This document shows positions 7,086-51,373 of a stretch of 64,000 bases of DNA, piece by piece. The stretch's first letter is position 1. Each line of letters opens with the position of its first letter. Source of the stretch: Candidatus Magasanikbacteria bacterium RIFOXYC2_FULL_42_28 (GTDB lineage Bacteria > Patescibacteriota > Patescibacteriia > Magasanikbacterales > GWA2-37-8). The stretch lies in assembly GCA_001784435.1 (NCBI GenBank), contig MFQZ01000010.1, forward strand, positions 169,960 through 233,959, in the 5' to 3' direction. The notes under the pieces were generated by a model that had not been told where the DNA came from, made no database searches, and saw nothing but the letters and a program-made list of their open reading frames with translations. Made by a program: the position numbers and the translations under genes.

Positions 7086-8540
7086 ATGAAAACAAAATTA
7101 TACAATTATCTGTATAATACCGGCGTGCCGATAAATGAGGTGTATACACCTTTATTGGCGTTGGCGAATAAATTTGCTTCGCCGTCGTCGAATAATTTTT
7201 GGCAAACCATTATTACTGTTTCTGATTATATGAAGGCGCGGTACCAAACAGAACAATGGTATCCGGAAAAGATTATTTTTGGTTTAGTAGAGTGGAAAAC
7301 CGCGAGTGATTTAGCCGCGTCTTTGGAGGCGATTGACCGTTTGCTCGCGCGTTCGGGCGTGTCGCTGGTGGACAACACTAAAACACGCGGTAAGTTTATT
7401 GGTTTAGAGTTGAATGATGCCACCTTAAAACATTGGGCCAGCGCTTATGATCTTGCCGATTCGGTTGTTAAAAATCGCGTTGATAGTGAGTTGCCGATAG
7501 CACTATCGCTTTTTGCGCGTCTTAACATTCAATTTCAAACCGTGGGCATGCTCATCAATTTACCGCTTGGCCCGGCTCTTTATTCTAAGGCAGAAGTGAA
7601 TAATTTTGTTAATGTTGGGGGGGCGGACTGTGATTTTGCTCGTTTGGTTTTCACTTTGCGGGAAATGTCAATTACCGATGCTCGCCACGAGGTCTATGTG
7701 ATTGTTAAAGAATTTTTATTAGCCGACCATTGTTTGAATAATGAAAATTTAGAATGGGAACAGGCGGTCTTATTGGTTTGGTCTTTGGGATTTATGTTTA
7801 ATGAATTTGAACGTTTGTCCTCCGAAGACCAGATTTGGTTAATCAATAATTATTATTATCGAGCGTTTGCGATTGGCGTGCCTTTAAAAATAATTTTACA
7901 ATCATACCTTCTATCATCGCGTTGGGTAGTTGAATATGTGCGGAAATGTTCGGCTTTAATTTTAAATATTGAGAATAATTCTGAAAATGTTTATTTTGGC
8001 GGTGAAGAAAATAATTCTGCCTTTGGTTTAATCAGCGCCGAATATCACCGTCGATTAGCGGACAAAATATCCGAGGGGCTGTCGGATCAAACTGTGGCCG
8101 AGGCCTTTGTTGCCGGTTTATTTGGCGGTGGATACGACGAGAGCGCGCCCACGTATTATCATTGGCTACAAGAAGCGTTAATAGTATACGTCGGCTTGAA
8201 AGAATCGACTTTGGTGGATTGGCTGAAAGATGGCGACTCACCGTTAAATTATGAAAATCGCGGAGAGTTGATCAAATTGTTGACTTATTTTGTTTATGGC
8301 GGAGAGTTTGTCAAGTTGGTGGAATATTTCCAAGATAAAAAATCAAAAGTTCCATTTAAAATATTTTTAAATTATATAAAAGACGCTGTTGATTTGTCGG
8401 TTGACGTGATTATTCAGAATTGTCTAGCGTTTGCCGAAGTGATGCGCGACAATGGTTTGCTATCTTCGGACGATGACCTAATCGAATATCACCAGGAGGA
8501 TGGCCAATTTTATTGGAATAAAAAATTGTTAAAACAGTAA
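7086..8540 (+). CDS. hypothetical soluble protein, paralog of the next gene
   Basis: Shared segments: LSSEDQIWLINNYYYRAFAIGVPLKIIL here versus LSSETQIELIKKFTLKALCWGVPLDKVL in the 8544 gene. Tightly linked, same strand. Confidence 0.5.
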   Translation: MKTKLYNYLYNTGVPINEVYTPLLALANKFASPSSNNFWQTIITVSDYMKARYQTEQWYPEKIIFGLVEWKTASDLAASLEAIDRLLARSGVSLVDNTKTRGKFIGLELNDATLKHWASAYDLADSVVKNRVDSELPIALSLFARLNIQFQTVGMLINLPLGPALYSKAEVNNFVNVGGADCDFARLVFTLREMSITDARHEVYVIVKEFLLADHCLNNENLEWEQAVLLVWSLGFMFNEFERLSSEDQIWLINNYYYRAFAIGVPLKIILQSYLLSSRWVVEYVRKCSALILNIENNSENVYFGGEENNSAFGLISAEYHRRLADKISEGLSDQTVAEAFVAGLFGGGYDESAPTYYHWLQEALIVYVGLKESTLVDWLKDGDSPLNYENRGELIKLLTYFVYGGEFVKLVEYFQDKKSKVPFKIFLNYIKDAVDLSVDVIIQNCLAFAEVMRDNGLLSSDDDLIEYHQEDGQFYWNKKLLKQ

Positions 8541-8543
8541 ATT

Positions 8544-9722
8544 ATGTCGGCATTTTATTTTTTACAATCATCTAGTCCGGAGACGTGGAAACAACGCGTC
8601 GATTTGTTGATAAGAATTGGGATGATAGCCGACGATTTATTTTTGGGGAAATGGGAGAATGATTCTGTCTGGGGCTGGTCAAAATTTTTAGTAGCTGATT
8701 TGGCAAAATTTAATAAAGAAAAGATTCCGTCTGATTGGCGGTATCAGTCGTTTTTTTACGCGTTGGTTGGTTTTTTGGATTTTTCTCTACTTGAAAAAAT
8801 TACCAATGAGTTGGATAAGTTGGCGCGTATTAAAATTGGCCCGGCATCAAAGGGGGCGACAATCATTAGTACTGTTTCTGAAGAATGGAACGCTTTGGGT
8901 GATTTTTTGGATTTGACACCAGCTGGCGGGGGTATTTTGAGGAACAAAGTAAGCGGATTAACGGCCGTTGAATTAGAAAAATTAACAGCCGATATGCGTG
9001 TGTTAGCGGATGATTATAATGATTTTCGCATTGTTTTTAAATTTGTGGCGACCGCGTTGCTTTATCATATTCCGCCCGTGCCGGCAGTTGATTTGGATGG
9101 TTTTAAATATGCTGTGTCGGTTCAAGCCGAACAGAAAAAAAATGATTTTAGTATTGATCACGGATTGCTTTGCACTAATTTTTTAGGGTGGTCGTTTTTA
9201 AAGCGGGATGAAAAAGTGATGCGTTGGGCCGCGGAATATCTGCGACAGTTTTCCGTCGAATCGATTAAATATGATAGTCCGTTTGATTTGATTTTTTTAA
9301 TTGGTATTTTACATTTAGCTTTTTATAATTTTACCGGATTATCATCTGAAACACAGATTGAGCTGATTAAAAAATTTACTCTGAAAGCGCTCTGTTGGGG
9401 GGTGCCGCTAGACAAAGTGTTGTTATCCAAGTCGGGCGAAGGATTGTCTGTCGCCACCGGCCCAAAAAATACGAGAGCGCTGTTTACTGCTTTAGAAAAT
9501 AGTGAGGAGACAATGAATTTTGGTTCTGATAAAGTTTTAATGAATGTTGGGCAATTTGTTAAGCAATTTTTATTGTCGGCTCATCGTGATTATGGGGGAT
9601 ACGCGCAGACCGAATATGTTGGAGACGCGATCAGAGAAAATCATTGGCCAGATGGCGCGCGTGTTTATTTATTCGCACTTTTAAAATGTTGTTTATATTT
9701 AAAAGCCGGCAGTTCCGCTTGA
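8544..9722 (+). CDS. hypothetical soluble protein, paralog of the 7086 gene
   Basis: See the previous feature; 4-nt intergenic gap. Confidence 0.5.
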   Translation: MSAFYFLQSSSPETWKQRVDLLIRIGMIADDLFLGKWENDSVWGWSKFLVADLAKFNKEKIPSDWRYQSFFYALVGFLDFSLLEKITNELDKLARIKIGPASKGATIISTVSEEWNALGDFLDLTPAGGGILRNKVSGLTAVELEKLTADMRVLADDYNDFRIVFKFVATALLYHIPPVPAVDLDGFKYAVSVQAEQKKNDFSIDHGLLCTNFLGWSFLKRDEKVMRWAAEYLRQFSVESIKYDSPFDLIFLIGILHLAFYNFTGLSSETQIELIKKFTLKALCWGVPLDKVLLSKSGEGLSVATGPKNTRALFTALENSEETMNFGSDKVLMNVGQFVKQFLLSAHRDYGGYAQTEYVGDAIRENHWPDGARVYLFALLKCCLYLKAGSSA

Positions 9723-9806
9723 AGTCAATTGGTGTTGTATCGCTTTAAAATATGGTAAACAGCAATTAGTCCGCTATTTTATTAAAAAAATCCACCCGCA
9801 CCATTT

Positions 9807-9899
9807 AAAACCTTTTAAGCATCCTTAAAAGGTTTTGTAAAAATAGGGTATGGCAGACGCGATTAGATACTTGACAGCGATGTGGTTAAATGTTACAAT
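9807..9899 (+). promoter_or_regulatory. copy 1 of palindrome+promoter element: aaaaccttttaag-catc-cttaaaaggtttt inverted repeat followed by TTGACA-N17-TACAAT
   Basis: Inverted repeat at 9807-9838; -35 TTGACA at 9871-9876 and -10 TACAAT at 9894-9899, read directly. Related copies at 11341 and 13074. Confidence 0.5.
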
Positions 9900-9932
9900 A
9901 ATAGGTATATATATACTTATAAATGTAAACTT

Positions 9933-11330
9933 ATGGAAATCTCGCTTATTTTAGAGGAAATTACTCGACAGAATAAGTTCTGGGCGCGAGAAAAACAGCG
10001 TGATTTTTTTGGTAATAATACGTTTAAACGTGAATTGTACCCACGGCTTGTCGCTTTACTGACCGATCGGCTAATTATTTCGATCGTTGGATTGCGACGT
10101 GTTGGTAAAACAGTTTTACTCAAACAATTAATTGGGCATTTGATAGATAATGACAAAGTTGAACCGCGCAATATTTTATTTTTAAGTTTTGATGAAGCGA
10201 TGCTGAGTTCGGCTGTCAAACTCGACGATTACTTGCGGATTTATTTAAGCCATTTTCAGGCGCGACGCACCGGGCGTTTGTATATTTTTTTAGATGAAAT
10301 TCAATATGCGCCCGAGTGGCAACATATTTTAAAACGATTTTATGACACCGAACCGAATATTAAATTTATTATTTCCGGTTCGTCCTCGCTTTTTTTAAAA
10401 AAGAAAGCGACCGAAAGTTTAGTTGGTCGGATTTATGAATTTAATTTACCGGTATTAAGCTTTGTGGAATATTTGGAATTGGCCCAAGTTTTTTCCGCCA
10501 ACTTGTCAATTTTTAAATCTTTGCTATGTGATATCAAGGCGGGATCGAAAGATTGGTTGAAATTAGACGTCGCCAGAAAGATTTTTTTGTCCGAGCATTC
10601 ACTTTGGTTGGCCGGACAATTTGATGAATATTTACTACGTGGACAATTTCCCGAAGTGGTAGGCGAAAAAGATATTGTTAAAATTGAAAGATATTTACGT
10701 GAATCAGTTTATAAAAAAACCATTGAATTTGATATCCCACGGTTATTTGGCGCTGATAAGGTTGGTGATTTAAAATTTATTTTTCAAGTCCTGGTTAACG
10801 AAACAGGTAATCAGTTTGAAGTTGGCAATCTGGCCCAAGAGGCGCAGATCGATCAAAAAACTCTTACTCGCTATTTATCTTTTTTTGAAGAAAGTTTGTT
10901 GGCGCGGATTTTATATAACTATTCGCGCTCATTGCGTAAAACCCATCGCCAGCCCAAGAAGATTTATATTAGTAGTACTAATTTTTATCCGTTGGACTTG
11001 GCTACGCCGCTTGAAACCCGCGGTGCAATTTTGGGGCATTTAGCTGAAACGCATGCCTGCAATTTATTGCGAGCGCGTTTTGATAATTTATCATTTTATC
11101 GTGTGCGGAAACAGGAAGTTGATTTTATTGGAGCGGACAACTGGTTGGATCGGTCATCCTATCGCTTAATTGAAGTAAAATATCGGTCTGATGTCAGTCG
11201 ACAAAGGTTTGTGTTTTTGGAAAATACCGCTAAGCGTTTTGGTGTTGGTCGGTTGCCGGTGGTTTTAACAAAATATGAATTTGGCGTTTCAGAAAAATTA
11301 GCGTTGGTGCCGTTATTTATGATAAAGTAA
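9933..11330 (+). CDS. AAA+ ATPase of the COG1373/DUF4143 type (Walker A GLRRVGKT, Walker B IFLDEIQ)
   Basis: Motifs visible in the translation. Start moved from the track's 9882 to the ATG at 9933 (MEISLILEE) because the promoter -10 ends at 9899. Confidence 0.6.
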   Translation: MEISLILEEITRQNKFWAREKQRDFFGNNTFKRELYPRLVALLTDRLIISIVGLRRVGKTVLLKQLIGHLIDNDKVEPRNILFLSFDEAMLSSAVKLDDYLRIYLSHFQARRTGRLYIFLDEIQYAPEWQHILKRFYDTEPNIKFIISGSSSLFLKKKATESLVGRIYEFNLPVLSFVEYLELAQVFSANLSIFKSLLCDIKAGSKDWLKLDVARKIFLSEHSLWLAGQFDEYLLRGQFPEVVGEKDIVKIERYLRESVYKKTIEFDIPRLFGADKVGDLKFIFQVLVNETGNQFEVGNLAQEAQIDQKTLTRYLSFFEESLLARILYNYSRSLRKTHRQPKKIYISSTNFYPLDLATPLETRGAILGHLAETHACNLLRARFDNLSFYRVRKQEVDFIGADNWLDRSSYRLIEVKYRSDVSRQRFVFLENTAKRFGVGRLPVVLTKYEFGVSEKLALVPLFMIK

Positions 11331-11340
11331 TACTAAGTGT

Positions 11341-11451
11341 TTTTAAGTACATTTAAAAGGTTTTGAAAAAATAGGGGAGTTTTTGGGCATAAAGAGTTAT
11401 CCACAGAGGTAGTTTGACATTTTTAACTGTTTTAAGTATACTTAAAACATA
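11341..11451 (+). promoter_or_regulatory. copy 2 of palindrome+promoter element (degenerate palindrome, TTATCCACAG box, TTGACA-N17-TATACT, palindromic ttttaagtatacttaaaa over the -10)
   Basis: TTATCCACAG at 11397-11406, -35 at 11414-11419, -10 at 11437-11442. The perfect palindrome ttttaagtatacttaaaa at 11431-11448 is a candidate operator. Confidence 0.5.
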
Positions 11452-11477
11452 GCATAAAAATATGAAATGTTTTAAGT

Positions 11478-12692
11478 ATGTTTAAAGAATATATCAAAAG
11501 AGAGGTTTATGTTAATAAAATTCGTCCTTTTATCGGCAAGGATATTATTAAGGTTTTAGTTGGCCATAGACGGGTCGGTAAGAGTTATTTGTTGTATCAG
11601 ATAATGGATGAAGTCAAAAACCAAGATTCAAAAATAGAGATTGTGTATATTAATAAGGAGTTAAATGATTTTGCCGATATTGTTGATCATCAGAGCTTGC
11701 TTAAATATATTGATTTAAAAAAAAATAAAAATAGTGGCGGAAAAACCGCGCTATTTATCGACGAAGTGCAGGACATTATTAATTTTGAAAAGGCCCTGCG
11801 TCACCTAAACGCCTCCGGGCAGTTTGATATTTATTGTACAGGCAGTAATGCTAAATTGTTATCAGGCGAGTTGGCGACTTTTTTGTCCGGTCGGTATATA
11901 GAAGTTGAAGTGCGCGGTTTGTCGTACAATGAATTCTTGGAATTTCATAAATTGGCAAAAGGTAAAGAATCTCTATTTCGTTATATTAAATATGGCGGTT
12001 TACCATATTTAATTAATTTACCACCGGAAGACGATGCCGTGTATGATTATTTGCGCAACATTTATAACACTATCGTTTTAAAAGATGTGGTCGAGCGTTT
12101 TAGATTAAGGAATGTAAATTTGCTGGAAAGATTGATTGAATATCTTGCGGATAATGTTGGTAGTTTGGTTTCAGCCAATAATATCAGTGATTTTTTAAAA
12201 TCGCAAAAAATTAAAATTTCACCGAATACCATTTTAAATTATCTGTCATATTTGGCGGCGAGTTATTTTATTTATAAAGTTCCGCGGCTAGATATTGTGG
12301 GAAAGAAAATTTTTGAGGTTAATGATAAATTTTATTTTGAGGATTTAGGATTAAGGCATGTGGTGGTTAATTACAAACAATCGGATATTAATAAAATTTT
12401 AGAAAATTTAGTGTTTTCGCATTTGAAATATATTGGTTATGAGGTTAAGGTCGGCCAATTGGGCCAGCAGGAAATTGATTTTGTAGCAAGCCGGGGTGAG
12501 GCGCGGGTTTATGTGCAAGTGGCTTACTTGCTAAATAGCGAGGCGGTCAAGCAACGAGAGTTTGGCAATTTATTAAAAATTGATGATAATTATAAAAAAA
12601 TAGTGGTGAGTATGGATGATTTTGGCGGGGGGAATGTTAGCGGTATCGAGCAGTGGAATGTCGTAGATTTTTTATGTGATTTTCTCGGGTAG
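11478..12692 (+). CDS. second AAA+ ATPase of the COG1373/DUF4143 type (Walker A GHRRVGKS, Walker B LFIDEVQ)
   Basis: Motifs in the translation; paralogous architecture to the 9933 gene. Confidence 0.6.
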   Translation: MFKEYIKREVYVNKIRPFIGKDIIKVLVGHRRVGKSYLLYQIMDEVKNQDSKIEIVYINKELNDFADIVDHQSLLKYIDLKKNKNSGGKTALFIDEVQDIINFEKALRHLNASGQFDIYCTGSNAKLLSGELATFLSGRYIEVEVRGLSYNEFLEFHKLAKGKESLFRYIKYGGLPYLINLPPEDDAVYDYLRNIYNTIVLKDVVERFRLRNVNLLERLIEYLADNVGSLVSANNISDFLKSQKIKISPNTILNYLSYLAASYFIYKVPRLDIVGKKIFEVNDKFYFEDLGLRHVVVNYKQSDINKILENLVFSHLKYIGYEVKVGQLGQQEIDFVASRGEARVYVQVAYLLNSEAVKQREFGNLLKIDDNYKKIVVSMDDFGGGNVSGIEQWNVVDFLCDFLG

Positions 12693-12716
12693 AATTAAAA
12701 TAATTATGAATTTATT

Positions 12717-12962
12717 ATGAAAACTATAATAGAAATAGACCGAAAGCAAGATGAAGTAATCCGCCTTCACTTATCCAATGACGACTATGATGATTTTGGC
12801 TGGATAGACATGTGGACGACCAAAGAAAAAGAGGGGGATGAGCCGGAGCAGAGTGAAACCGTGAATTTTTTCATTGACGATTTACGCGCGGCTCTAGAAG
12901 GATTTGTGGCGCAAAGAGAGTTGCAACATAAGCGAGATCAGATGTTGAAAGAAAATGAGTAG
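12717..12962 (+). CDS. small acidic hypothetical protein (81 aa)
   Basis: ORF only; no motif recognised. Confidence 0.35.
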   Translation: MKTIIEIDRKQDEVIRLHLSNDDYDDFGWIDMWTTKEKEGDEPEQSETVNFFIDDLRAALEGFVAQRELQHKRDQMLKENE

Positions 12963-12989
12963 ACAAGTTGATAATTTTGAGATTTAATT

Positions 12990-13075
12990 TTTGGCAATAC
13001 TGTGCTATAATATATCCATGACCAATAATGCTTCACCGACAATTTTAGTCAAAAAATCCGACGGCACGTTCACAA
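12990..13075 (+). repeat. about 85-bp duplicate of the promoter and first ~20 codons of the gene at 14619 (copy at 14610-14695)
   Basis: gctataatatatccatgaccaataatgcttcaccgacaattttagtcaaaaaatccgacggcac versus ggtataatatacctatggacaataataccaaacaaccaacaattttagtcaaaaaatccgacggcac, read directly. The upstream copy runs into the palindromic element and a stop. Confidence 0.75.
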
Positions 13076-13178
13076 AACCTTTTAAGCACCCTTAAAAGGT
13101 TTTGTAAAAATAGGGGAAATTTTAAGTATAAAGTTATCCACAGCACCGTTTGACTTATCAGTGTTATTTTGGTAAATT
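13074..13178 (+). promoter_or_regulatory. copy 3 of palindrome+promoter element (perfect aaaaccttttaag-cacc-cttaaaaggtttt, TTATCCACAG, TTGACT-N17-TAAATT)
   Basis: Palindrome at 13074-13105; TTATCCACAG at 13134-13143; -35 at 13150-13155. Confidence 0.5.
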
Positions 13179-13197
13179 AGCACAATATACTAATTTT

Positions 13198-13782
13198 ATG
13201 AAATGGATTGATTTTGAGAAAAGTATTAAAGATAAAGATATTAAGTTATTTACACCGCGCGATGTAAGTGTTTTTTTGGGTCGCTCAACAATTGCTGTGC
13301 GATTTTTAATGCATCGCCTAAAACAAAACGGACAAATTATGGGGGTTAAGCGCGGTCTTTATAAATTATCCGGTCAACTCGTACCTGATTATTATTTGGC
13401 TAATAGAATTTACGCTCCCTCCTATATTTCTTTAGAATCGGCGTTGTCATATTATGGTGTTATTCCGGAAACCGTATATGAAATTACGTCAGTAACTTCT
13501 AAAATTACTCGTCGTTTTGAAACCGCCGGAAAAATTTTTTCTTATCATAAAATTAAACAATCTGCTTTTACCGGTTATGGTATAGCGCACCAAGACGGAG
13601 CAAATTTTTATTTGGCTGACGCGGAAAAAGCGTTTATAGATGTGTGTTATCTGCGGTTATTGGCGGGCCGAGAGTCGATATCTCGTTTTGACAAAACAAA
13701 GCTTAATAAGGAGAAAACTTTAAGTTATGCTGATTTGTATAAAAATAAAAAATTAGTTGCGACTATTCGTAAATTATTATGA
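13198..13782 (+). CDS. abiEi: AbiEi-like antitoxin/transcriptional regulator (type IV TA, COG5340-like)
   Basis: About 195 aa with an N-terminal wHTH-like region and SLESALSYYGVI segment. It overlaps the downstream AbiEii-like gene by 4 nt. Start taken at 13198, downstream of the promoter; the track gives TTG at 13150. Confidence 0.5.
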   Translation: MKWIDFEKSIKDKDIKLFTPRDVSVFLGRSTIAVRFLMHRLKQNGQIMGVKRGLYKLSGQLVPDYYLANRIYAPSYISLESALSYYGVIPETVYEITSVTSKITRRFETAGKIFSYHKIKQSAFTGYGIAHQDGANFYLADAEKAFIDVCYLRLLAGRESISRFDKTKLNKEKTLSYADLYKNKKLVATIRKLL

Positions 13783-14540
13783 TTACCAAAGATTATATTG
13801 AGAAATTAGCAAAGCTTGGCCATGTTGCAACATTTCCAAATATCGCGAGAGAGTATTTTCAGCATGTTTTTTTGTCAAATTTAAGTCAGATTCCTGGTGG
13901 GGAAAAGTTATTGTTTAAGGGTGGTACGGCCTTGCGAATAGTTTATGGTAGTCCGCGTTTTTCCGAAGATTTAGACTTTTCTTTGTTCGGCGTCTCGCAC
14001 TCGCTCGTTAATAAATTTGTGGAAGATATTTTTCTGAAGATTTTATCTGAAATTGAAAGGACTGGGATTAAGGTTGAATTGGGTAAAAAAAGCGGAGAAA
14101 CAAGCGGCGGATATTTTGGTGTGGCATCGTTTCGGTTCTATGATTATCCTTTGATTGGCGTTGAGATCAATGTATCCGCGCGAGGAACCAAGCAGTTGGC
14201 CGGGGAAGCAGATAGTATCGTTAGCGATTTTGCGCCGGCGTATTCGTTATTGCATTTACCGCAAATTGTTTTGGTTGAAGAAAAAATATTTGGCGCTTTA
14301 CTGGAACGCAAAAAACCACGTGATTTTTATGATTTGTATTTTATTATGCGCAAAGGAATGCTAACGAATGAGCAGAAACAGCGATTATCAACGGTCAAAA
14401 ATAAAATAATCGCGAGTGCCAAGAAGATCGATTTTCGATATGAACTCGGTGTTTTTTTACCTTCTGACCAGCAATTGATTGTACGGGATTTTTCAGCAGT
14501 TTTAGAGCGGGAGTTAAATAGACAATTAGCAAAAATCTGA
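13779..14540 (+). CDS. abiEii: AbiEii-like nucleotidyltransferase toxin (DUF1814 family)
   Basis: N-terminal LLFKGGTALRIVYGSPRFSEDLDFS matches the family's conserved GGTAL / RFSEDxDF signature as I recall it. Size about 250 aa; operon overlap with the upstream antitoxin. Confidence 0.65.
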   Translation: MITKDYIEKLAKLGHVATFPNIAREYFQHVFLSNLSQIPGGEKLLFKGGTALRIVYGSPRFSEDLDFSLFGVSHSLVNKFVEDIFLKILSEIERTGIKVELGKKSGETSGGYFGVASFRFYDYPLIGVEINVSARGTKQLAGEADSIVSDFAPAYSLLHLPQIVLVEEKIFGALLERKKPRDFYDLYFIMRKGMLTNEQKQRLSTVKNKIIASAKKIDFRYELGVFLPSDQQLIVRDFSAVLERELNRQLAKI

Positions 14541-14618
14541 TGATTTTATAATTTTTGCAATTAAGTAAAATAATATTCGCACCGGCACCAAATATTTGAT
14601 TAGGTAATTGCGTCTATT

Positions 14619-15665
14619 TTGTGGTATAATATACCTATGGACAATAATACCAAACAACCAACAATTTTAGTCAAAAAATCCGACGGCACCTTCGCGCGGA
14701 TGTCTTTGGGGGAGATAAAAAAGATGAAAGTGGGTAAAATTACAGCACCGTCGTCTGTCATCCTGAATGAAATGAAGGATCCCTTGAAGTTGGCAGTAAG
14801 GGATTCTTCGGTCGCTACGCTTCCTCAGAATGACAATAACAAAAAAGTCGGAATGACAGGTAAAGACGCCAAGTCGCTTTTAGAAGAAGACAAATTGGTA
14901 GCCCCGGGCACGAGCGTTGCCGTTGGCCGAAATAATCAGGTGGACACGGTAATTAAAAAACTATCATTTTCCGTCGCGTCTAATTTTTTCAATCGTTTGC
15001 GGAGCGCGATTCAGTTGCGTTTAAAAGATGTACGCGGGGAAAAAGAAACACGCGCCACGGTGTTGCGTTCTATAAAAGACGGGGGACTGGGCTTGACTGA
15101 AACCCAAGCCAACGAATTGGAGCAAGTGTGCGCGACGGTGGGTAATTTATTGGCGCGACCACCGGCTAAAAGTAAAACTGATTTAATGGTTGAAGATCAA
15201 ATTTTACCGCAAACGTTTCACAAAATGCCTGTGCCGGCGAAAATGGCTCCACATAACGCGTTTGTGCATGAGGAATTTTTAAAAAAAGAAGAAAAATTTA
15301 AAATTAGTCCAGTGGCTGTTAGCCGACCGGCGATGAAGGATGTGGTTGCCGCCGCCGCGCCGGTCGGGCCGGTGGAGGAAATTAAATTTTTTACCCTAAC
15401 TGATTTTCGGCGTTTGGCCCAAGACCCTAACCAAGCCACCAAACGTTTGGCGCAAAAATTTATTAATTTGCGTGAAGAATCAGTTTTGTTATTTTGGCAG
15501 GCCTTGGATGCCTGGAAGCAAAGCCCGTTATTTGCCGACTATGTTGGTGTATTAAATCGAGTTTTTATCGGTAAAGTCGCGTCTGATCAGCAAAAAACGA
15601 GTGACCAGATAACCGATGTTGAGATAAAGGCGCTTATCGCGATGGAAAAAGATTTGGTAATCTGA
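14619..15665 (+). CDS. hypothetical protein (348 aa); its promoter and 5' end are duplicated upstream of the AbiE cassette
   Basis: ORF only; no motif recognised. Confidence 0.4.
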   Translation: MWYNIPMDNNTKQPTILVKKSDGTFARMSLGEIKKMKVGKITAPSSVILNEMKDPLKLAVRDSSVATLPQNDNNKKVGMTGKDAKSLLEEDKLVAPGTSVAVGRNNQVDTVIKKLSFSVASNFFNRLRSAIQLRLKDVRGEKETRATVLRSIKDGGLGLTETQANELEQVCATVGNLLARPPAKSKTDLMVEDQILPQTFHKMPVPAKMAPHNAFVHEEFLKKEEKFKISPVAVSRPAMKDVVAAAAPVGPVEEIKFFTLTDFRRLAQDPNQATKRLAQKFINLREESVLLFWQALDAWKQSPLFADYVGVLNRVFIGKVASDQQKTSDQITDVEIKALIAMEKDLVI

Positions 15666-15677
15666 TATAATAATGTT

Positions 15678-16106
15678 ATGGAGCAATTTACCGTCCCACA
15701 ATTTTTAGATGTTGAAGATAAAATTTTTGGCCCGATTACCACGCGCCAATTTGTGATTTTGCTCGCCACCGGTTTATTTCTGTTTATTGCTTACAAATTG
15801 GCTGATTTTGCGTTGTTTATCACTCTGTTCGTATTTATTGGCGGATTTGCCGTAATTTTGGCGTTTGTTAAAATTAACGGCCAGACCTTCCATTATTTTT
15901 TACTGAATATAATTCAAACCATGCGTCGCCCCAGCCGCCGGTTGTGGCAGAAACGTTATACCGACCAAGAATTAAAAGCAATGGCCGCCGGACCGAAAAA
16001 AGAAATGTTAGAGGCGCCGTCTCCTATTCCCAATCTTTCCAATAGCCGCATTCGCGCCTTGTCGCTCGTCGTTAATACCGGTGGATATTTTAAATATGAA
16101 GAATAA
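15678..16106 (+). CDS. small 2-TM membrane protein, PrgI/VirB3-like candidate
   Basis: 142 aa with two hydrophobic helices (LLATGLFLFIAYKL..., LFITLFVFIGGFAVILAFV). Sits immediately upstream of a VirB4-like ATPase, as PrgI/TcpE do in Gram-positive T4SS. Assignment is by context and architecture. Confidence 0.35.
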   Translation: MEQFTVPQFLDVEDKIFGPITTRQFVILLATGLFLFIAYKLADFALFITLFVFIGGFAVILAFVKINGQTFHYFLLNIIQTMRRPSRRLWQKRYTDQELKAMAAGPKKEMLEAPSPIPNLSNSRIRALSLVVNTGGYFKYEE

Positions 16107-16782
16107 AGCTGTCGCCAAAAAGAAAGTCGCTTTGATATCCGCGCAAAAACATTTGTTTATCGCGGAAATTAAGCAAGATACGGTGATTTTAAAAGACGGC
16201 ACTTTGCGCGCGGTTTTAATGGTGTCCAGTTTGAACTTTGCGTTGAAAAATGAAGACGAGCAAACCGCGATTGTCTCATCGTATGTTGGCTTTTTAAATT
16301 CACTTGATCATCCTTTGCAAATTTTAATTCAGTCACGCGAACTTTATATTAAACCGTATTTAGACGATTTAGCCAAACATGAACATGAACAAACTAACGA
16401 ACTATTGCGCACGCAAATCGCCGATTATCGGTCATTTGTGTCGGAGTTGGTTGAGCTCGGACAAATTACCAGCAAACAATTTTATGTGGTTGTGCCCTAT
16501 GATCCTTTGAGTAATAAAAAACGCAGTTTTTGGTCGCGGGCACAGGAAGTATTGAATCCGATTTCGGCCGTAAAATTAAAAGATGAGAAATTTTTACAAC
16601 GCAAATATGATTTAGATCAGCGAGTGCGTTTGGTAGAGTCAGGGTTGTCCAGTATGGGGTTGGAAGTGAAACGGCTTGATACCCAAACTTTGATTGAATT
16701 GTATTTTTCGTCGTATAATCCGGATATTGCTTTAAGTGAACATTTGCCGGAAATTAATAAAATTCAGGTAGAAGAAGAATAG
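16081..16782 (+). CDS. hypothetical soluble protein in the T4SS-like operon (possibly a split-off N-terminal VirB4 domain)
   Basis: Overlaps the upstream gene and ends 1 nt before the ATPase gene. The VirB4-like ATPase downstream lacks the long N-terminal domain of canonical VirB4. Confidence 0.3.
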   Translation: MDILNMKNKAVAKKKVALISAQKHLFIAEIKQDTVILKDGTLRAVLMVSSLNFALKNEDEQTAIVSSYVGFLNSLDHPLQILIQSRELYIKPYLDDLAKHEHEQTNELLRTQIADYRSFVSELVELGQITSKQFYVVVPYDPLSNKKRSFWSRAQEVLNPISAVKLKDEKFLQRKYDLDQRVRLVESGLSSMGLEVKRLDTQTLIELYFSSYNPDIALSEHLPEINKIQVEEE

Positions 16783-16783
16783 T

Positions 16784-18646
16784 ATGGCCTTCAAACCAGT
16801 ATTCACCAATAAACCGGCGCTAGATAAAGCCAAAATTGCTCTGGAGCAAAAGACCGAAGCGGAGTTGATTACGCTTGAAGAAGAGCGGATTTATCGCGAG
16901 GGCGTGGTTTCAATTAAGGATTTAATTGCTCCGGCGGCTTTTAATGTTGAAAAAGATCATTTGGAATTGGGCACGACATATTGCCGCACCATGTTTATTG
17001 TCAGTTACCCACGTTATATCAGCGTCGGTTGGAGCTCGCCGGTAATAAATTTGTCCGTCAATATGGACATCACCATGTTCTTTTATCCGGTTAAATCAGC
17101 TATTATTTTGAAACAGTTAAGAAATAAAACCGGCGCTTTGCAAGCTCAAATTACCGCTGATTCGGAAAAGGGCGCCCCGCGCGACCCACTCCGTGAAACG
17201 GCTTTGCGCGATGTGGAAGAATTACGCGACAGTTTGACGCAGGGCACGGAACATTTTTTTCAATTTGCTTTTTACGTTACGATTTATACCCAAGACAAAA
17301 CCCGTTTGGATCAATTGTCCGAAGATATCGAAAACATGTTCGGCAGTAAATTAATTACGAGTCGTAAAGTTTTATACCAAGCCGAACAGGGTTTTAATTC
17401 TACCTTACCGCTTTGCAATGACGAACTGATGATCGCGTTCAACATGAATTCCAGTCCGATCGCCGCTTCCTTTCCGTTTATTTCGGCCGAACTTACCTCG
17501 GATGATGGTATTTTATACGGCATTAATCGCCACAACAACAGTTTGATTTTGTTTGACCGGTTTTCGCTTCAAAACGCCAATATGGTGGTGTTTGCCACTT
17601 CCGGCGCGGGTAAAAGCTATGCCATCAAATTGGAAATTTTGCGCTCGATGATGCTTGGCGTGGAAGTGATTGTGATTGATCCGGAAATGGAATATAAACA
17701 TTTGTCCGACGCGGTGGGTGGGACTTACATTAATATTTCGCTTTCGTCAGAAAGTAAAATCAATCCTTTTGATTTGCCACGGCCACGCGAACGCGACACG
17801 CCCGTGTCTGATATTATTCGGGGCGCGGTTATCACTGTCAAAGGTTTGCTTCGGATTATGTTGGGCGGTTTTACTACTCAAGAGGACTCCATTATTGACC
17901 GCGCTTTGATTGAAACCTACGCCAAAAAAGATATTACGCCGGAAGCGGATCTGTCGGCTGTCAAACCACCGATAATGCAGGATTTGCAAGAAATTTTAGA
18001 AGGCATGACCGGCGCGGATGAATTGGTTTTAAAATTGCAAAAATATACCGAAGGCACTTTTGCCGGGTTATTTAATTCGCCCACGAATGTTGACACTAAA
18101 AATCAATTAGTGGTATTTTCCGTGCGTGATTTGGAAGATGAATTGCGCCCGATGGCGATTTACGCCATTGTTAATTACATTTGGAATACGGTGCGGTCGG
18201 AGCGTAAAAAACGTTTGTTAATTATTGACGAGGCCTGGTGGCTCATGATGCACGAAGACAGCGCTCGTTTTATTCACGCGCTGGTTAAACGTTGTCGCAA
18301 ATATTTTTTGGGTGTTACAACCATTACCCAAGATGTGAATGACTTTTTGGGTTCTAAATACGGACAGGCGATTGTTACTAACTCGGCTTTGCAGTTGCTT
18401 TTGCGTCAATCGCCCGCGGCTATTGATAACATTCAAAAAACATTTTTGCTTACGGACAGCGAAAAATATCTGTTGCTGGAATCAGGTCCGGGTGAGGGGA
18501 TATTTTTTGCTGGCTTGAAACACGCGGCGATAAAAGTGGTGGCGTCGTATACCGAAGATCAAATAGTTACCACTAATCCGGAACAGTTATTACAAATTGA
18601 ACAGTCCAAAAAAGAATTTGAACAGATGAATAAAATTCCGAGTTAA
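16784..18646 (+). CDS. VirB4/TraC/PrgJ-like conjugative/T4SS ATPase
   Basis: Walker A FATSGAGKSY and Walker B RLLIIDEAWWL in the translation. The C-terminal ATPase domain arrangement is typical of the VirB4 family. Confidence 0.6.
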   Translation: MAFKPVFTNKPALDKAKIALEQKTEAELITLEEERIYREGVVSIKDLIAPAAFNVEKDHLELGTTYCRTMFIVSYPRYISVGWSSPVINLSVNMDITMFFYPVKSAIILKQLRNKTGALQAQITADSEKGAPRDPLRETALRDVEELRDSLTQGTEHFFQFAFYVTIYTQDKTRLDQLSEDIENMFGSKLITSRKVLYQAEQGFNSTLPLCNDELMIAFNMNSSPIAASFPFISAELTSDDGILYGINRHNNSLILFDRFSLQNANMVVFATSGAGKSYAIKLEILRSMMLGVEVIVIDPEMEYKHLSDAVGGTYINISLSSESKINPFDLPRPRERDTPVSDIIRGAVITVKGLLRIMLGGFTTQEDSIIDRALIETYAKKDITPEADLSAVKPPIMQDLQEILEGMTGADELVLKLQKYTEGTFAGLFNSPTNVDTKNQLVVFSVRDLEDELRPMAIYAIVNYIWNTVRSERKKRLLIIDEAWWLMMHEDSARFIHALVKRCRKYFLGVTTITQDVNDFLGSKYGQAIVTNSALQLLLRQSPAAIDNIQKTFLLTDSEKYLLLESGPGEGIFFAGLKHAAIKVVASYTEDQIVTTNPEQLLQIEQSKKEFEQMNKIPS

Positions 18647-18661
18647 ATTAATTAAAATTTT

Positions 18662-19261
18662 ATGCTTCCACTTCGCACCCGCATTTTCATAATCATCAGT
18701 TTAGTGGTTCTGGTAGTTCTGGGTATTAGTGTGTTGGTCTCGGTTTTAAGTAACCGTGAACCATCGGCGCCCACGACCGAGACGCCCGATTCGGTCGTTG
18801 ATTTGCCGGCCGGGACAGTGCTGTATAATGGTGCACCAGTGGTAGTGTCCCCAATAGAAAACGGTTTAACTCCACCGCCCGCACTCACTACTTTAGAGGC
18901 CGAACAAAACAGCGTCCGTCAATTGGCGCGGATTTTTACCATTCGTTATAATTCTTATTCCACGGATGCTAATTATCAAAATATTCGTGAAGTGCAGAGT
19001 TTGGTAACGGACAATTTATGGGCGCAAATTAGCAAACCACTCGCCGGTAACAGCGTTAGCGCCAATTTTTTGGGCGTTACTACCAATGTTATTGGCACGG
19101 AATTATTGTCCTGGGGAAGTGACGTCGCGGTTGTGGCCGTAAAAACCACTTCGGTGCAAGATAAAAATGGAGTAGAAAGTAATTTAGCGCGTAGTGGCAC
19201 GGTGAATTTGGTTAAGACCGACGGTCAATGGTTGGTAGATAAATTTGCATGGGAGAAATGA
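18662..19261 (+). CDS. bitopic membrane protein (N-terminal TM plus ~150-aa extracytoplasmic domain), VirB8-like candidate
   Basis: N-terminal IFIIISLVVLVVLGISVLVSVL helix. Its size and topology match VirB8-type proteins, but no motif was verified. Confidence 0.25.
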   Translation: MLPLRTRIFIIISLVVLVVLGISVLVSVLSNREPSAPTTETPDSVVDLPAGTVLYNGAPVVVSPIENGLTPPPALTTLEAEQNSVRQLARIFTIRYNSYSTDANYQNIREVQSLVTDNLWAQISKPLAGNSVSANFLGVTTNVIGTELLSWGSDVAVVAVKTTSVQDKNGVESNLARSGTVNLVKTDGQWLVDKFAWEK

Positions 19262-19273
19262 CATTCGATTCGT

Positions 19274-19309
19274 TTGTCATTCCCGTGAAAATGGGAATCC
19301 AGTCGTCAA
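19274..19309. repeat. TGTCATT-family palindromic element (ttgtcattcccgtgaaaatgggaatccagtcgtcaa)
   Basis: Near-identical copy at 61844-61879: ctgtcattcccgcgaaagcgggaatccagtcgtcaa. It overlaps the likely comFC start codon. Confidence 0.7.
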
Positions 19310-20007
19310 TTAAAGACAATCTATTTCCCATTTTTTGCGTGGACTGCGGACGGGAAGGGGAGACGTGGTGTGAAAACTGCCGGCGACAATTTGATGTTGC
19401 CGGTATTTTATTTTGTCCGGTTTGTTCTTTGCAGGCAGACAATGGCAAGACCCATTCCACTTGCGCGCGCGCCAATTGGCATTTGGACGGTTTGGTATCT
19501 TTGGTGCCTTATCGCGACAATTCGCCTTTGACACGGTTAATTAAACAATTAAAATATCATTTTGTTTCTGATAACGCCGATTGGATGGCGGATATTTTAC
19601 GAATTTGGTTGGCGTTTAATAGCGAGCGCGTTAAATTTATTTTTAATAATCGGATAATTGTGCCGGTACCGTTACACCGTCGTCGTTTGCGCGAGCGGGG
19701 ATTTAATCAGGCCGAATTAATCGCGGAAGCGTTAAGATTAGTTTTGTCAGAGCGCGGAATTGAAGATAATGTCAGCACTAAATTAGAACGCAGTCGTTAT
19801 ACTAGCGCGCAAGCGCGACTACACGAAGAAGCGAGAGAAAAAAATATGCTCTCTGCTTTTAAATGGCCGGATCAAGAGGTTTGCCCGCGCGCGGTGGTTT
19901 TGGTTGACGATGTTTACACTACCGGCGCCACGATGAATATGGCCGCTGGCGCGCTTAAAGCCGTGGGCGCGCAATCGGTGTGGGGGTTTACTTTATTGCG
20001 TGGGTAA
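19291..20007 (+). CDS. comFC: ComF/ComFC-family phosphoribosyltransferase-like competence protein
   Basis: N-terminal Cys4 zinc-finger (CVDCG...CENC, CPVCS) and C-terminal PRTase motif VVLVDDVYTTGATM. Start could be 19249 (track) or the ATG at 19291. Confidence 0.65.
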   Translation: MGIQSSIKDNLFPIFCVDCGREGETWCENCRRQFDVAGILFCPVCSLQADNGKTHSTCARANWHLDGLVSLVPYRDNSPLTRLIKQLKYHFVSDNADWMADILRIWLAFNSERVKFIFNNRIIVPVPLHRRRLRERGFNQAELIAEALRLVLSERGIEDNVSTKLERSRYTSAQARLHEEAREKNMLSAFKWPDQEVCPRAVVLVDDVYTTGATMNMAAGALKAVGAQSVWGFTLLRG

Positions 20008-20049: not shown

Positions 20050-20143
20050 GGAGAGGTGGCTGAGCGGTCGAAAGCGGCAGGTTGCTAACCTGTTATACGG
20101 TTGTAAAGCCGTATCGAGGGTTCAAATCCCTCCCTCTCCGCCA
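20050..20143 (+). tRNA. tRNA-Ser (anticodon GCU)
   Basis: Cloverleaf folded by hand: acceptor GGAGAGG/CCTCTCC, anticodon loop TTGCTAA, long variable arm, T-loop TTCAAAT, encoded CCA. Confidence 0.8.
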
Positions 20144-20145
20144 AA

Positions 20146-20186
20146 AATAATAACCCACAAGTGTGGGTTATTATTATTTTTGGATA
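20146..20186. terminator. bidirectional rho-independent terminator (aataacccacaagtgtgggttatt with flanking A/T runs)
   Basis: Perfect stem cccacaagtgtggg, with T-runs on both strands. Sits between convergent tRNA-Ser and the minus-strand beta-helix gene. Confidence 0.7.
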
Positions 20187-20191
20187 ATTTT

Positions 20192-21919
20192 TTATTTCCA
20201 CTCATCCGCCCCAATATCATAAGCACTGCCTTGCGGGCGAGTTTGTCCATCAATATCATTAGTGACAGCGCCAATTGTTTTGCCGGCATCAACTACGCCG
20301 GCAATATTTTGTTTTAGACGTAAATTGCCTGATTGATAATCGACAAACATATCAGCTGTAGCTTGCGAGTGGTTATTTGATAAATCAGCCGAGCCATTAT
20401 CGCGCTTGGCGATTGATTTGTTAACCAAATTATTATAAATTTCCACATTTTTTGTGTCAGCGAATCGATATTCAATCGCCGCCCAATAATTATTTTCCAT
20501 GAAAATGGTATTATTGTAAACTTTCGCGTCCGGAGCGTTCCAAAGGCCAATGCCAACATCGCCGGCAGTGGCGTTGTGGTAAATCATATTATTGCGAATT
20601 ATGCCACCGGTGTGTCTGTTGCTTAAGCCAAAGCCAATGCCACGATCGCTGTTAATGATGGTATTTCGTTCCACGAGCGTGCCTTCGGAATCATTCCAAA
20701 AATGAATAGCGTATTCCGCGATAGTTGAATTGGGGCTACGGATATTTTTAAAGGTATTCCCGCGGATTATCCAATTGACTGAATTGTGCGCGTCAATTCC
20801 GCCGATGTAATTTTGTGGTCCAATGCCGGCGGTGTATTCAAACAGCGAACATTCCACAATGCTATTTTCCGATTTGATTTCTTTGTGTTTATTATCCACC
20901 GATACTTTTAATAATTGTTCGTAGGCGTCAAATAGTCGGACATTGTGGACCAATAAATTATCCGCGTCTTTTTCACCAAATACTTGGATGACATGATTGG
21001 CCACTTGGCCGATGCTCATATCGGCAATAGTAACATTGTCGCCGATGACGCCAAAAATATGGCTGGCCCCACCTTTCATTTTTGGACTTTTGATAAGGAC
21101 TTTATTACGGTCGCCGGACGCGCTTCTAATCGTAACGTTATTTTGGTAGATAAACAGAAAATGTTCGGCCAAATATTCGCCATCATTAAGAAGTATGGTC
21201 ACATTACCGCTGTTGTCATTGGCATTTTTTACCGCGGTTCTTAGTTCTTTCCAGTTAGAAACAGTGACAGTGGCACCGGTTGGGGGCGGAAGTGCCGCGC
21301 AGGCCGAAGATGCCAATACTGGTGTTGGTGGATTGGGGGTTGGCGTTGGAGTTGGTGCTGGCGCAGGAGGCAGAGGTGGTGTAGGTGTTGGTGTAGGCGC
21401 TGGTGCGGGTACGGATGCCGGAGTAGACGCAGGATTGGGTTTAGCCGTTGATTTAGGCGCAACGACCTTAGCTATTTTAGTGGTTATTTTTTTCGGTGCC
21501 ACCGGGGCAGTGGCGTTTTTTAAAATTTTTTCTGGGAAATTAGTGATGATAATTAATCCGCCTAAATAATATTCCGGTCGGGTGGGGTGAAAGCCGACAA
21601 AAACAACCACCTTACTGTCGGTTTTTAAATTTGCAGATTTAGCCGGGACAAGTTTTGTTCCGCTTATCGCCAACACCGGCGTTTTATCTTTATAAATAAT
21701 TTTATCACGTCCGTCTTTGGTTTTTGGAATGGTAATAACTTTGTTGGCCGTGTCTATTTTTTTGATAACGGTTTGGATCATCAGCGGTTTGTCCGGCGCG
21801 CCGATGGTTTGGGCTTGAACACTGCCGGTATTAGTGAGAGATGAATGTTTAATAAATAAAAAAACCAAGACCGTGATCACGGCGCCAACTAAAATTAAAT
21901 TTATTTTATGTTTAAACAT
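20192..21919 (-). CDS. secreted/membrane-anchored protein with Pro/Thr/Ala-rich linker and right-handed parallel beta-helix (pectate-lyase-like) repeats
   Basis: N-terminal hydrophobic anchor; PAPAPTPTPTP linker; repeated N-x-(V/I)-x-I-x-N-N segments typical of beta-helix repeats. Confidence 0.5.
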   Translation of the reverse strand: MFKHKINLILVGAVITVLVFLFIKHSSLTNTGSVQAQTIGAPDKPLMIQTVIKKIDTANKVITIPKTKDGRDKIIYKDKTPVLAISGTKLVPAKSANLKTDSKVVVFVGFHPTRPEYYLGGLIIITNFPEKILKNATAPVAPKKITTKIAKVVAPKSTAKPNPASTPASVPAPAPTPTPTPPLPPAPAPTPTPTPNPPTPVLASSACAALPPPTGATVTVSNWKELRTAVKNANDNSGNVTILLNDGEYLAEHFLFIYQNNVTIRSASGDRNKVLIKSPKMKGGASHIFGVIGDNVTIADMSIGQVANHVIQVFGEKDADNLLVHNVRLFDAYEQLLKVSVDNKHKEIKSENSIVECSLFEYTAGIGPQNYIGGIDAHNSVNWIIRGNTFKNIRSPNSTIAEYAIHFWNDSEGTLVERNTIINSDRGIGFGLSNRHTGGIIRNNMIYHNATAGDVGIGLWNAPDAKVYNNTIFMENNYWAAIEYRFADTKNVEIYNNLVNKSIAKRDNGSADLSNNHSQATADMFVDYQSGNLRLKQNIAGVVDAGKTIGAVTNDIDGQTRPQGSAYDIGADEWK

Positions 21920-51300: not shown

Positions 51301-51373
51301 AAAAATTATTGTGGTGTTGGTGGAAACGGGGCGGATCATGGGAGAGATTGATGGCGTGGGATTGATATTTTAA
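48371..51373 (+). CDS. single-chain Type IIL/IIG restriction-modification enzyme, MmeI-like (N-terminal PD-ExK nuclease plus gamma-class N6-adenine methyltransferase plus TRD)
   Basis: N-terminal D...EAK nuclease motif (PDFLF...AEAKD), methyltransferase motif I ILDPATGTGTFL and motif IV NPPY (VVLGNPPYN). 1000 aa. Confidence 0.6.
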   Translation: MNYIKIMKNDLVNEYIKSITEKYQSGQAKEHAYRPALQKLFTDITGLNVINDPKRSEYGAPDFLFMKGKVAAAYAEAKDIGVSLDETEKGEQLARYFGYSNLILTDCLEFRFFRNGQKYEAVKIAEIKNGEIVADENNFAHLEDTIKEFINEAKEPIKSGAVLAKVMAGKARRIRDNIKKFLHDGDTQTNESLLSVYNVIKKLLLADLDYDKFADMYAQTVVYGLFAARYHDETPDTFSRQEARDLVPVSNPFLRHFFDHVAGPSFDKRIEFIVNELCEEFVHADVQAIVHDYYKVEKDDSRDPIIHFYEDFLQEYDSAERKKMGVFYTPLPVVRFIVRALDDVLKKEFGLNGLADSAKIEINSVSQGKKFKQSVHKVQILDPATGTGTFLNEVISHIKKSFDGQEGRWANYAREELLPRLHGFEIMMASYTIAHLKLTTTLKESGVDINRGRLGVYLTNSLEKAESYDDTLFAGLGLGQAITDESIAANKVKNDLPIMVVLGNPPYNVSSQNKGEWIGELIKDYKKDLNERNIQPLSDDYIKFIRFSQYLIDKNGEGVIGMITNNSYIDGITHRQMRKSLLESFDSIYILDLHGNAKKKEVAPDGSADQNVFSIMQGVSIAIFVKKSAKKKTLGVVYHAEMFGKQKNKYEALDNSDFEKMKWNKIKYEAPYYFFVPKDFGASEEYESGFKLDDFFSIKAAGIKTHHDDIVIAFSEDNLKKQILNYCDSSNFIFDVEKIKKICYRPFDERFLYYDTKIVVRHRKEQMKHSFYSNLSLLAGRQSKSDQISHFFITNLLSEMKTAESTTGSYHFPLYLYADDGTKIPNLKKEIVQEIEKITGPITPENILDYIYAVLHSPNYREKYKEFLKIDFPRVPYPKDKNQFFALAKLGEELRYLHLLESPKVNSFITTYPVVGDNMVEKIIYENEKVFINKTQYFGGVPKLAWDFYIGGYQPAQKWLKDRKGRKLTNADIEHYQKIIVVLVETGRIMGEIDGVGLIF

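Follow-up and report, generated by a model that had tools for sequence, protein, structure and literature searches.

Patescibacteria form a vast bacterial branch, for the most part uncultured, whose members live attached to other microbes. A survey of 3,035 of their genomes found the Patescibacteria VirB4 clade to be monophyletic and nested in the monoderm mating-pair formation class MPF-FATA, and identified TrsD, a remote homologue of the VirB4 N-terminus that was first defined in pGO1-type plasmids, as the most abundant of the components that accompany VirB4 (Quinonero-Coronel et al. 2025, Microb Genom, PMC12102498). According to the same survey, PrgI/VirB3, VirB6 and VirB2-like pilins are widespread in Patescibacteria, VirB8 homologues are rare and come nearly all from class ABY1, and comF, recG and radA are found close to type IV secretion system (T4SS) genes in ABY1. 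VirD4-like genes are common elsewhere in the genomes, and relaxases occur in 103 of the 3,035 genomes, rarely near virB4. Here, we analysed a 64-kb stretch of DNA (the window) from Candidatus Magasanikbacteria RIFOXYC2_FULL_42_28 (GCA_001784435.1; class ABY1) and observed a T4SS gene cluster that is real and chromosomal in this ultra-small genome. We consider it very likely that the cluster encodes a chromosomal, non-conjugative T4SS with VirB4 in two polypeptides, PrgI, a VirB8-like protein and ComF. A T4SS of this kind has already been described for Patescibacteria, this genome included, since GCA_001784435.1 is listed as ABY1 and VirB4-positive in Table S1 of the survey (PMC12102498); the finding is therefore correct, but not new.

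The locus agrees with the Patescibacteria-clade T4SS in that TrsD and PrgI/VirB3 occur beside VirB4 in the chromosome, a VirB8 homologue can be detected, comF is adjacent, and no relaxase is found nearby or anywhere in the 64 kb. An entry in Table S3 of the survey gives the adjacency VirB8 (PrgL profile)-VirB4-TrsD for another ABY1 genome (PMC12102498). The window differs by having neither a VirB2-like pilin array nor a VirB1-like hydrolase near virB4, by an AAA_14/AbiE insertion that interrupts the cluster, and by a VirB8 assignment that was made by predicted fold and not by profile-profile comparison. Otherwise there is no fundamental difference.

For comparison, 80 related loci from species-level genomes were retrieved with the VirB4 of the window (72-83% identity); those with informative titles belong to Magasanikbacteria or Patescibacteria. 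Many of the records, which are metagenome-assembled genomes, are titled 'uncultured Gammaproteobacteria bacterium' (e.g. L001, L002, L005-L007 and L010), and L066 is titled 'Candidatus Udaeobacter sp.'. Yet their VirB4 genes are 75-83% identical to those of Magasanikbacteria and syntenic with them, and these titles are probably wrong taxonomic labels. The cluster is far beyond chance: the profile matches of PrgI and VirB4 exceed their curated cutoffs, and 70-78 of the 80 genomes keep the gene order.

A preliminary description of the sequence had placed four open reading frames (ORFs) on the plus strand, at 15678-16106 (142 amino acids), 16081-16782 (233 amino acids), 16784-18646 (620 amino acids) and 18662-19261 (199 amino acids). 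They had been read as a PrgI/VirB3-like protein with two transmembrane (TM) helices, the possible missing N-terminus of VirB4, a VirB4-like ATPase with Walker A and B motifs, and a bitopic VirB8-like candidate. The ORFs and the four assignments withstood closer analysis, while the start of the second gene moves to 16096 and the proposed limits of the module have to be widened. The first product (15678-16106, plus strand) belongs to the PrgI family, the VirB3 analogue of monoderm T4SS, with a match to Pfam PF12666 of 44 bits against a gathering score of 27 (E 3.4e-11) and TM helices predicted at residues 20-38 and 46-64. It carries the UniRef name 'PrgI family protein', and its median identity across the related loci is 63%.

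The 620-residue product (16784-18646, plus strand) is a VirB4-type T4SS ATPase of the CD1110 family, which matches the NCBIfam model NF045971 (conju_CD1110) over residues 25-577 with 360 bits against a cutoff of 325. Both nucleotide-binding motifs are intact, Walker A as ATSGAGKS at residues 271-278 (17594-17617) and Walker B as LLIIDE at residues 478-483 (18215-18232). The protein also matches Pfam P-loop_TraG (5e-29) and, through its C-terminal part, the solved C-terminal domain of a VirB4 (PDB entry 4ag5; E 1.5e-45). Public names in the cluster include 'conjugal transfer protein TraC' and 'TraC-like domain-containing protein'. Relative to full-length VirB4, the protein lacks ~130-170 residues at its start: its match to NF045971 spans positions 169-728 of 752, and model coverage indicates that the first ~168 positions are absent and are supplied by TrsD. 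Matches to PF03135 and PF11130 lie at residues 62-211. Of the VirB4 N-terminal domain the protein thus retains the second half, and the break falls inside that domain.

The TrsD/TraD-like product of 228 amino acids (16096-16782, plus strand) is predicted to be soluble, and its gene overlaps the PrgI gene by 11 nucleotides. Its true start is almost certainly the ATG at 16096 and not 16081, because the homologues have 225-231 amino acids and the public record of the identical protein has 228. It matches the TrsD/TraD model of NCBIfam with 4e-8 (33 bits, far under the family cutoff of 200), as well as positions 18-147 of the CD1110 model and positions 104-233 of the VirB4_plasma model, and these parts do not overlap with those covered by the 620-residue protein. 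A fused VirB4 of 754 amino acids from a Carboxydocella plasmid aligns with its residues 11-129 to TrsD 16-135 (E 2e-17) and with its residues 133-750 to residues 12-605 of the 620-residue protein (E 9e-68), so that both proteins tile the fused one collinearly and without overlap. The structure predicted for TrsD, which the preliminary description had proposed to compare with VirB4, has TrwK/VirB4 as its best structural match; phmmer against PDB sequences gave no match for TrsD. These alignments show that VirB4 is naturally split, with TrsD as the detached N-terminal piece and the 620-residue protein as the remainder. TrsD consists of the VirB4 N-terminal subdomain and a C-terminal extension of ~90 residues, which have no counterpart in the fused VirB4. 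An assembly or frameshift artefact as the origin of the split was rejected in view of over 6500 homologues that stand alone and match in length, and of an identical split on Firmicutes plasmids.

The split of VirB4 is older than Patescibacteria. In the staphylococcal MPF-FATA systems of the pGO1/pSK41 type (TrsC, TrsD, TrsE) VirB4 function is likewise shared by a small, separate TrsD/TraD protein and the ATPase, with a small VirB3-like membrane protein as neighbour, but these systems are plasmid-borne and conjugative and possess a relaxase and a coupling protein. On the Firmicutes megaplasmid NZ_CP062975.1 of Pontibacillus sp. ALD_SL1 a TrsD-like protein of 274 amino acids is followed by a CD1110 VirB4 of 621 amino acids that is 35% identical to that of the window over its full length, and upstream lie a PrgI-like protein of 116 amino acids with two TM helices and a large membrane protein of 779 amino acids. 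Unlike the window, this cluster resides on a plasmid, includes an Mbov_0395 pilin-like gene and a peptidoglycan endopeptidase, and has no VirB8-like or ComF gene downstream. It occupies 346553-365155 and is flanked by chemotaxis and flagellar genes; the plasmid is typed 'non-mobilizable', as are 19 of the 25 plasmids with TrsD-like matches. While the VirB4 of the window is 72-83% identical to those of the 80 related loci, its identity to the closest Firmicutes plasmid protein is 35%.

The bitopic product of 199 amino acids (18662-19261, plus strand) has a TM helix at residues 4-30, a disordered linker at 31-76 and an NTF2-like domain at 77-197, which in its predicted fold is most similar to VirB8 structures. 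Profiles for VirB8, PrgL and TcpC gave no match even at E<=1. The sole profile match was a weak one to CaMKII_AD, which is NTF2-like (7.6e-4). For lack of a match to a VirB8-family profile we call the protein VirB8-like by its predicted fold, its topology and its position, and not a demonstrable member of the sequence family.

The operon extends beyond these four genes. Its last gene (19249-20007, plus strand) overlaps the VirB8-like gene by 13 nucleotides and encodes a putative ComF/ComFC-family protein of 252 amino acids with a zinc ribbon and a phosphoribosyltransferase-like domain. The product matches TIGR00201 (comF) over the full model length with E 1.1e-29 and 103.8 bits (cutoff 233.55) and GntX with 9.8e-30, under the curated cutoff, while Pfam DZR_2 (25.2 versus 27) and Pribosyltran (23.1 versus 26.3) remain just under their gathering scores. 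Judged from these matches, the domain architecture fits ComF, although curated thresholds are not reached. At the other end, directly upstream of PrgI, lies a gene for a lineage-specific soluble protein (14637-15665, plus strand), which has 342 amino acids from its ATG, as in the public record, and 348 from the TTG at 14619 that opens the longest ORF. No TM helix is predicted for this protein, and its 170 homologues are all 'hypothetical', all from Magasanikbacteria or other Patescibacteria and without a Pfam domain. Its gene is the first of a tightly packed core operon (14637-20007), in which the gene junctions range from a 13-nucleotide overlap to a 15-nucleotide gap.

In the related loci the conserved, co-oriented order is a giant polytopic protein, one or two fast-evolving proteins of ~330-480 amino acids, the 348-residue protein, PrgI, TrsD, VirB4, the VirB8-like protein and ComF. 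Among the 80 loci, homologues were found for TrsD in 78, PrgI in 74, the 348-residue protein in 73 (directly upstream of PrgI and on the same strand), the VirB8-like protein in 72, ComF in 71 (70 of these immediately downstream and on the same strand) and the giant protein in 51-53. The cluster had been proposed as a minimal, non-conjugative T4SS without VirD4 or relaxase. Its non-conjugative nature is supported by family scans, which found no match to a relaxase, a VirD4/TcpA coupling protein or an integrase in any ORF of at least 70 amino acids in the window, whereas it is not minimal, as the giant protein, the 348-residue protein and ComF belong to it. Nonsynonymous divergence (dN) from ten relatives is 0.12-0.16 for VirB4, about 0.2 for TrsD, about 0.28 for PrgI and 0.45-0.7 for the 348-residue protein, the VirB8-like protein and ComF; dN alone is reported, since synonymous divergence (dS) was saturated or undefined. 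The low dN in VirB4 and TrsD, with dS saturated, shows that the cluster is under strong purifying selection.

The giant polytopic membrane protein (2295-7058, plus strand; 1587 amino acids) is probably an extended VirB6-like channel subunit. It has six or seven predicted N-terminal TM helices between residues 23 and 286, six of them strong, and a hydrophilic, Ala/Lys/Glu-rich, coiled-coil-like C-terminal part of ~1150 residues. At least five TM helices together with a large hydrophilic region, encoded within a T4SS cluster, agree with the definition of extended VirB6 proteins (PMC12857230). In the 51-53 related loci with a homologue, its gene stands directly upstream of the virB4 cluster. In the relatives it starts 6.9 kb upstream of virB4 (median), in the window 14.5 kb, because the copy of the window is longer and is followed by two genes of the ~350-residue family and an additional block of ~4.9 kb. 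Most giant proteins of the relatives have ~1000-1100 amino acids (range ~900-1900), with 6-9 TM helices. Their TM domain is conserved (38-58% identity), and the Ala/Lys/Glu-rich C-terminal region varies in length. Within the giant-protein family, CD3337/EF1877, an NCBIfam mobilome membrane protein of monoderm elements, is matched by 8 of 23 members (best 2e-7). A profile of the TM domain retrieved noise only from PDB sequences.

By analogy with the architecture of T4SS of the R388 and pCF10 type, PrgI and TrsD would hold a VirB4 hexamer at the cytoplasmic membrane, in which the VirB8-like and VirB6-like proteins would make up the translocon, and VirB4, by hydrolysing ATP, would drive assembly and transport. 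As to the substrate, we infer import or handling of host-derived nucleic acid and favour it, if tentatively and at rather less than an even chance, because ComF is translationally coupled to the operon throughout the lineage and ComFC has a role with single-stranded DNA (ssDNA) in H. pylori. In H. pylori, ComFC acts in the transport and handling of ssDNA, and DNA uptake proceeds by the ComB T4SS in a pathway that requires ComFC (PMC9005727, PMC13395361). H. pylori ComB (with ComFC) and the archaeal Ced system resemble the window in a VirB4-family ATPase, small membrane partners and the lack of a relaxase. The ATPase of the window is not CedB (54 bits against a profile cutoff of 700), and ComB is a diderm system of the VirB2-10 type; import by the system of the window is hypothetical. 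An extension of the idea, in which the T4SS and the coupled ComF would be a dedicated route for host nucleic acid in Magasanikbacteria/ABY1, like Ced or ComB, and the ~1150-residue coiled-coil extension of the giant protein would replace the VirB2 pilus as an extracellular conduit or adhesin, appears unlikely.

Several observations weigh against this picture of structure and function. The structure model of TrsD is only of moderate confidence (predicted local distance difference test score of 63). TrbL/VirB6 (PF04610) is matched by 8 of 23 members of the giant-protein family (best E 0.0017), the copy of the window not among them, and that copy reaches E 1.4e-4 and 21 bits for CD3337/EF1877 against a cutoff of 120. 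Its comparison by hhalign with the positional equivalent in Pontibacillus, the protein of 779 amino acids, yielded one short motif at 6.5% probability, and tblastn against plasmids gave no match. Because the profile matches stay under curated thresholds and the other tests are negative or weak, the VirB6-like nature of the giant protein is probable and not proven. Neither a VirB2 pilin nor a VirB1 hydrolase nor a type IV coupling protein (T4CP) is found in the window, and a scan of intergenic small ORFs with TM helices gave no VirB2 pilin candidate near the cluster; the parts list is therefore possibly incomplete or scattered. In the cultured Saccharibacterium Ca. Southlakia epibionticum, T4SS genes are essential for epibiotic growth and comEC is dispensable, according to Wang et al. 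(2023) as summarised in a 2025 review (PMC12857230). The essentiality of that T4SS does therefore not derive from ComEC-dependent transformation, which argues against a simple competence role. The adjacency of ComF could also be a lineage-specific accident of gene order.

The same data are in line with a different function, in which the T4SS delivers effector proteins into the host bacterium or forms a pilus or conduit for host contact, attachment and nutrient scavenging, and ComF is an incidental neighbour. In Southlakia it is T4SS genes together with arrays of VirB2-like pilins that are essential for epibiotic growth, independently of comEC (PMC12857230), and tubular structures, maybe T4SS pili, have been described at a parasite-host interface (bioRxiv 10.64898/2026.06.21.733656). 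The extracytoplasmic and accessory parts evolve fast, with 39% identity for the VirB8-like protein and 33-36% for the 348-residue protein compared to 80% for VirB4, as expected of host-facing parts. However, the window contains no pilin gene and no recognisable effector, and an accident is hard to credit when 70 of 71 loci have ComF as a co-oriented, immediate neighbour and its gene shares 13 nucleotides with the VirB8-like gene. We give this function nearly even chances.

Much less probable is that the cluster is the module for mating-pair formation within an integrated conjugative element (ICE), functional or decaying, that has its relaxase and coupling protein beyond the limits of the window. 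Membership of VirB4 in the CD1110 conjugal-transfer family, the homologous clusters on Firmicutes plasmids and the VirD4-like genes that are common elsewhere in Patescibacteria genomes (PMC12102498) would be in keeping with such an element. Yet at least 70 species-level genomes share the chromosomal neighbourhood and the gene order, the G+C content of the cluster equals that of the surrounding chromosome, 64 kb contain no integrase, relaxase or T4CP, and the ORFs are intact and under strong purifying selection. Moreover, relaxases are as scarce in Patescibacteria as cited above and rarely near virB4 (PMC12102498), and the Firmicutes plasmids with the closest clusters are mostly typed non-mobilizable. 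The surrounding genes are chromosomal housekeeping genes, namely those for L10, L7/L12, MreB, DNA polymerase III delta', ribosome recycling factor, prolyl-tRNA synthetase, triosephosphate isomerase, SecA and tRNAs. Given its fixed position in the chromosome and the lack of a relaxase or coupling protein in its vicinity, the cluster is not a conjugation apparatus; a decaying ICE remnant was rejected on synteny, composition and purifying selection. The cluster is thus a vertically inherited, selected chromosomal system, neither ICE nor remnant. An FtsK/HerA-type or partition ATPase beside unrelated membrane proteins, the competing assignment named in the preliminary description, was ruled out and merits practically no credence, as the secondary matches to DUF87/HerA (4.8e-8) and AAA_10 are weak and confined to the P-loop, VirB4 families score best by far (one of them over its curated cutoff at residues 25-577, and 4ag5 as given above), and the neighbours are independently recognised as T4SS parts through PrgI above threshold, the VirB8 fold and TrsD.

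The gene of the giant protein is ancestrally adjacent to the core operon, and in this genome defence and toxin-antitoxin genes were inserted between the two later on. The inserted block of ~4.9 kb (9723-14618, plus strand) is not part of the T4SS; none of its genes is present in any of the 80 related loci, and its G+C content is 0.35-0.36 compared to 0.41-0.46 in the flanks. All on the plus strand, it carries two genes for AAA_14/DUF4143 ATPases (9882-11330 and 11478-12692), an ORF of 81 amino acids (12717-12962), an AbiEi-like gene (13150-13782) and an AbiEii toxin gene (13779-14540), the ATPase and AbiE genes being assigned by Pfam. The first ~73 nucleotides of the 348-residue gene (14620-14693), with the -10 box, the ATG and ~19 codons, are duplicated at 13001-13071 with 83-95% identity, and a degenerate third copy of this 5' end lies at 9769-9805. 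Ahead of each inserted unit (9807-9841, 11341-11367 and 13069-13103) stands a palindrome, AAAACCTTTTAAG-N5-CTTAAAAGGTTTT, followed by GTAAAAATAGGGGA. The block looks as if it had been built cassette by cassette at one hotspot, which suggests site-specific insertion of defence/toxin-antitoxin genes that regenerates the 5' end of the target gene.

Between the giant protein and the insertion lie two plus-strand genes for proteins of unknown function with 484 (7086-8540) and 392 amino acids (8544-9722), at the position of the fast-evolving gene or genes for ~330-375 amino acids in the relatives. The two products share a segment of 81 residues with 33% identity (E 2e-8), an alignment that marks them as distant paralogues. 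Weak homologues (21-29% identity) occupy the equivalent position in 9-12 related loci, and the family is among the fastest-evolving of the cluster. Farther upstream, a cysteine-rich protein of 548 amino acids (69-1715) has no TM helix and no domain match. In 25-27 related loci a homologue (22-40% identity, often longer, with 560-935 amino acids) precedes the giant protein, so that the protein may be a further component associated with the cluster, possibly a secreted one. Compared with these homologues, the copy of the window may lack part of its N-terminus. PHROGs, Pfam and NCBIfam gave no match for the 548-, 484-, 392- and 348-residue proteins.

Downstream of ComF follow a tRNA-Ser gene (20050-20143) and a strong terminator-like hairpin (20146-20175). 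This hairpin was the sole convincing element in a scan for promoter and terminator consensus sequences, whose counts were not above shuffled expectation. Just beyond the operon, the minus strand encodes a protein of 575 amino acids (20192-21919) that combines a signal-anchor, a linker rich in Pro, Thr and Ala, and a choice-of-anchor Q domain at its C-terminus; the related loci lack this protein. A Type ISP restriction-modification enzyme of 1000 amino acids is encoded at 48371-51373 on the plus strand.

The locus is a clean and typical ABY1 example of the Patescibacteria T4SS and represents a confirmation rather than a discovery. To what is known it adds fold-level support for VirB8 and direct tiling evidence for the split VirB4, and it defines a conserved operon that includes the giant polytopic protein and ComF and describes how an insertion breaks it up in this genome. 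The T4SS of Patescibacteria is essential to the epibiotic lifestyle in the one species tested.

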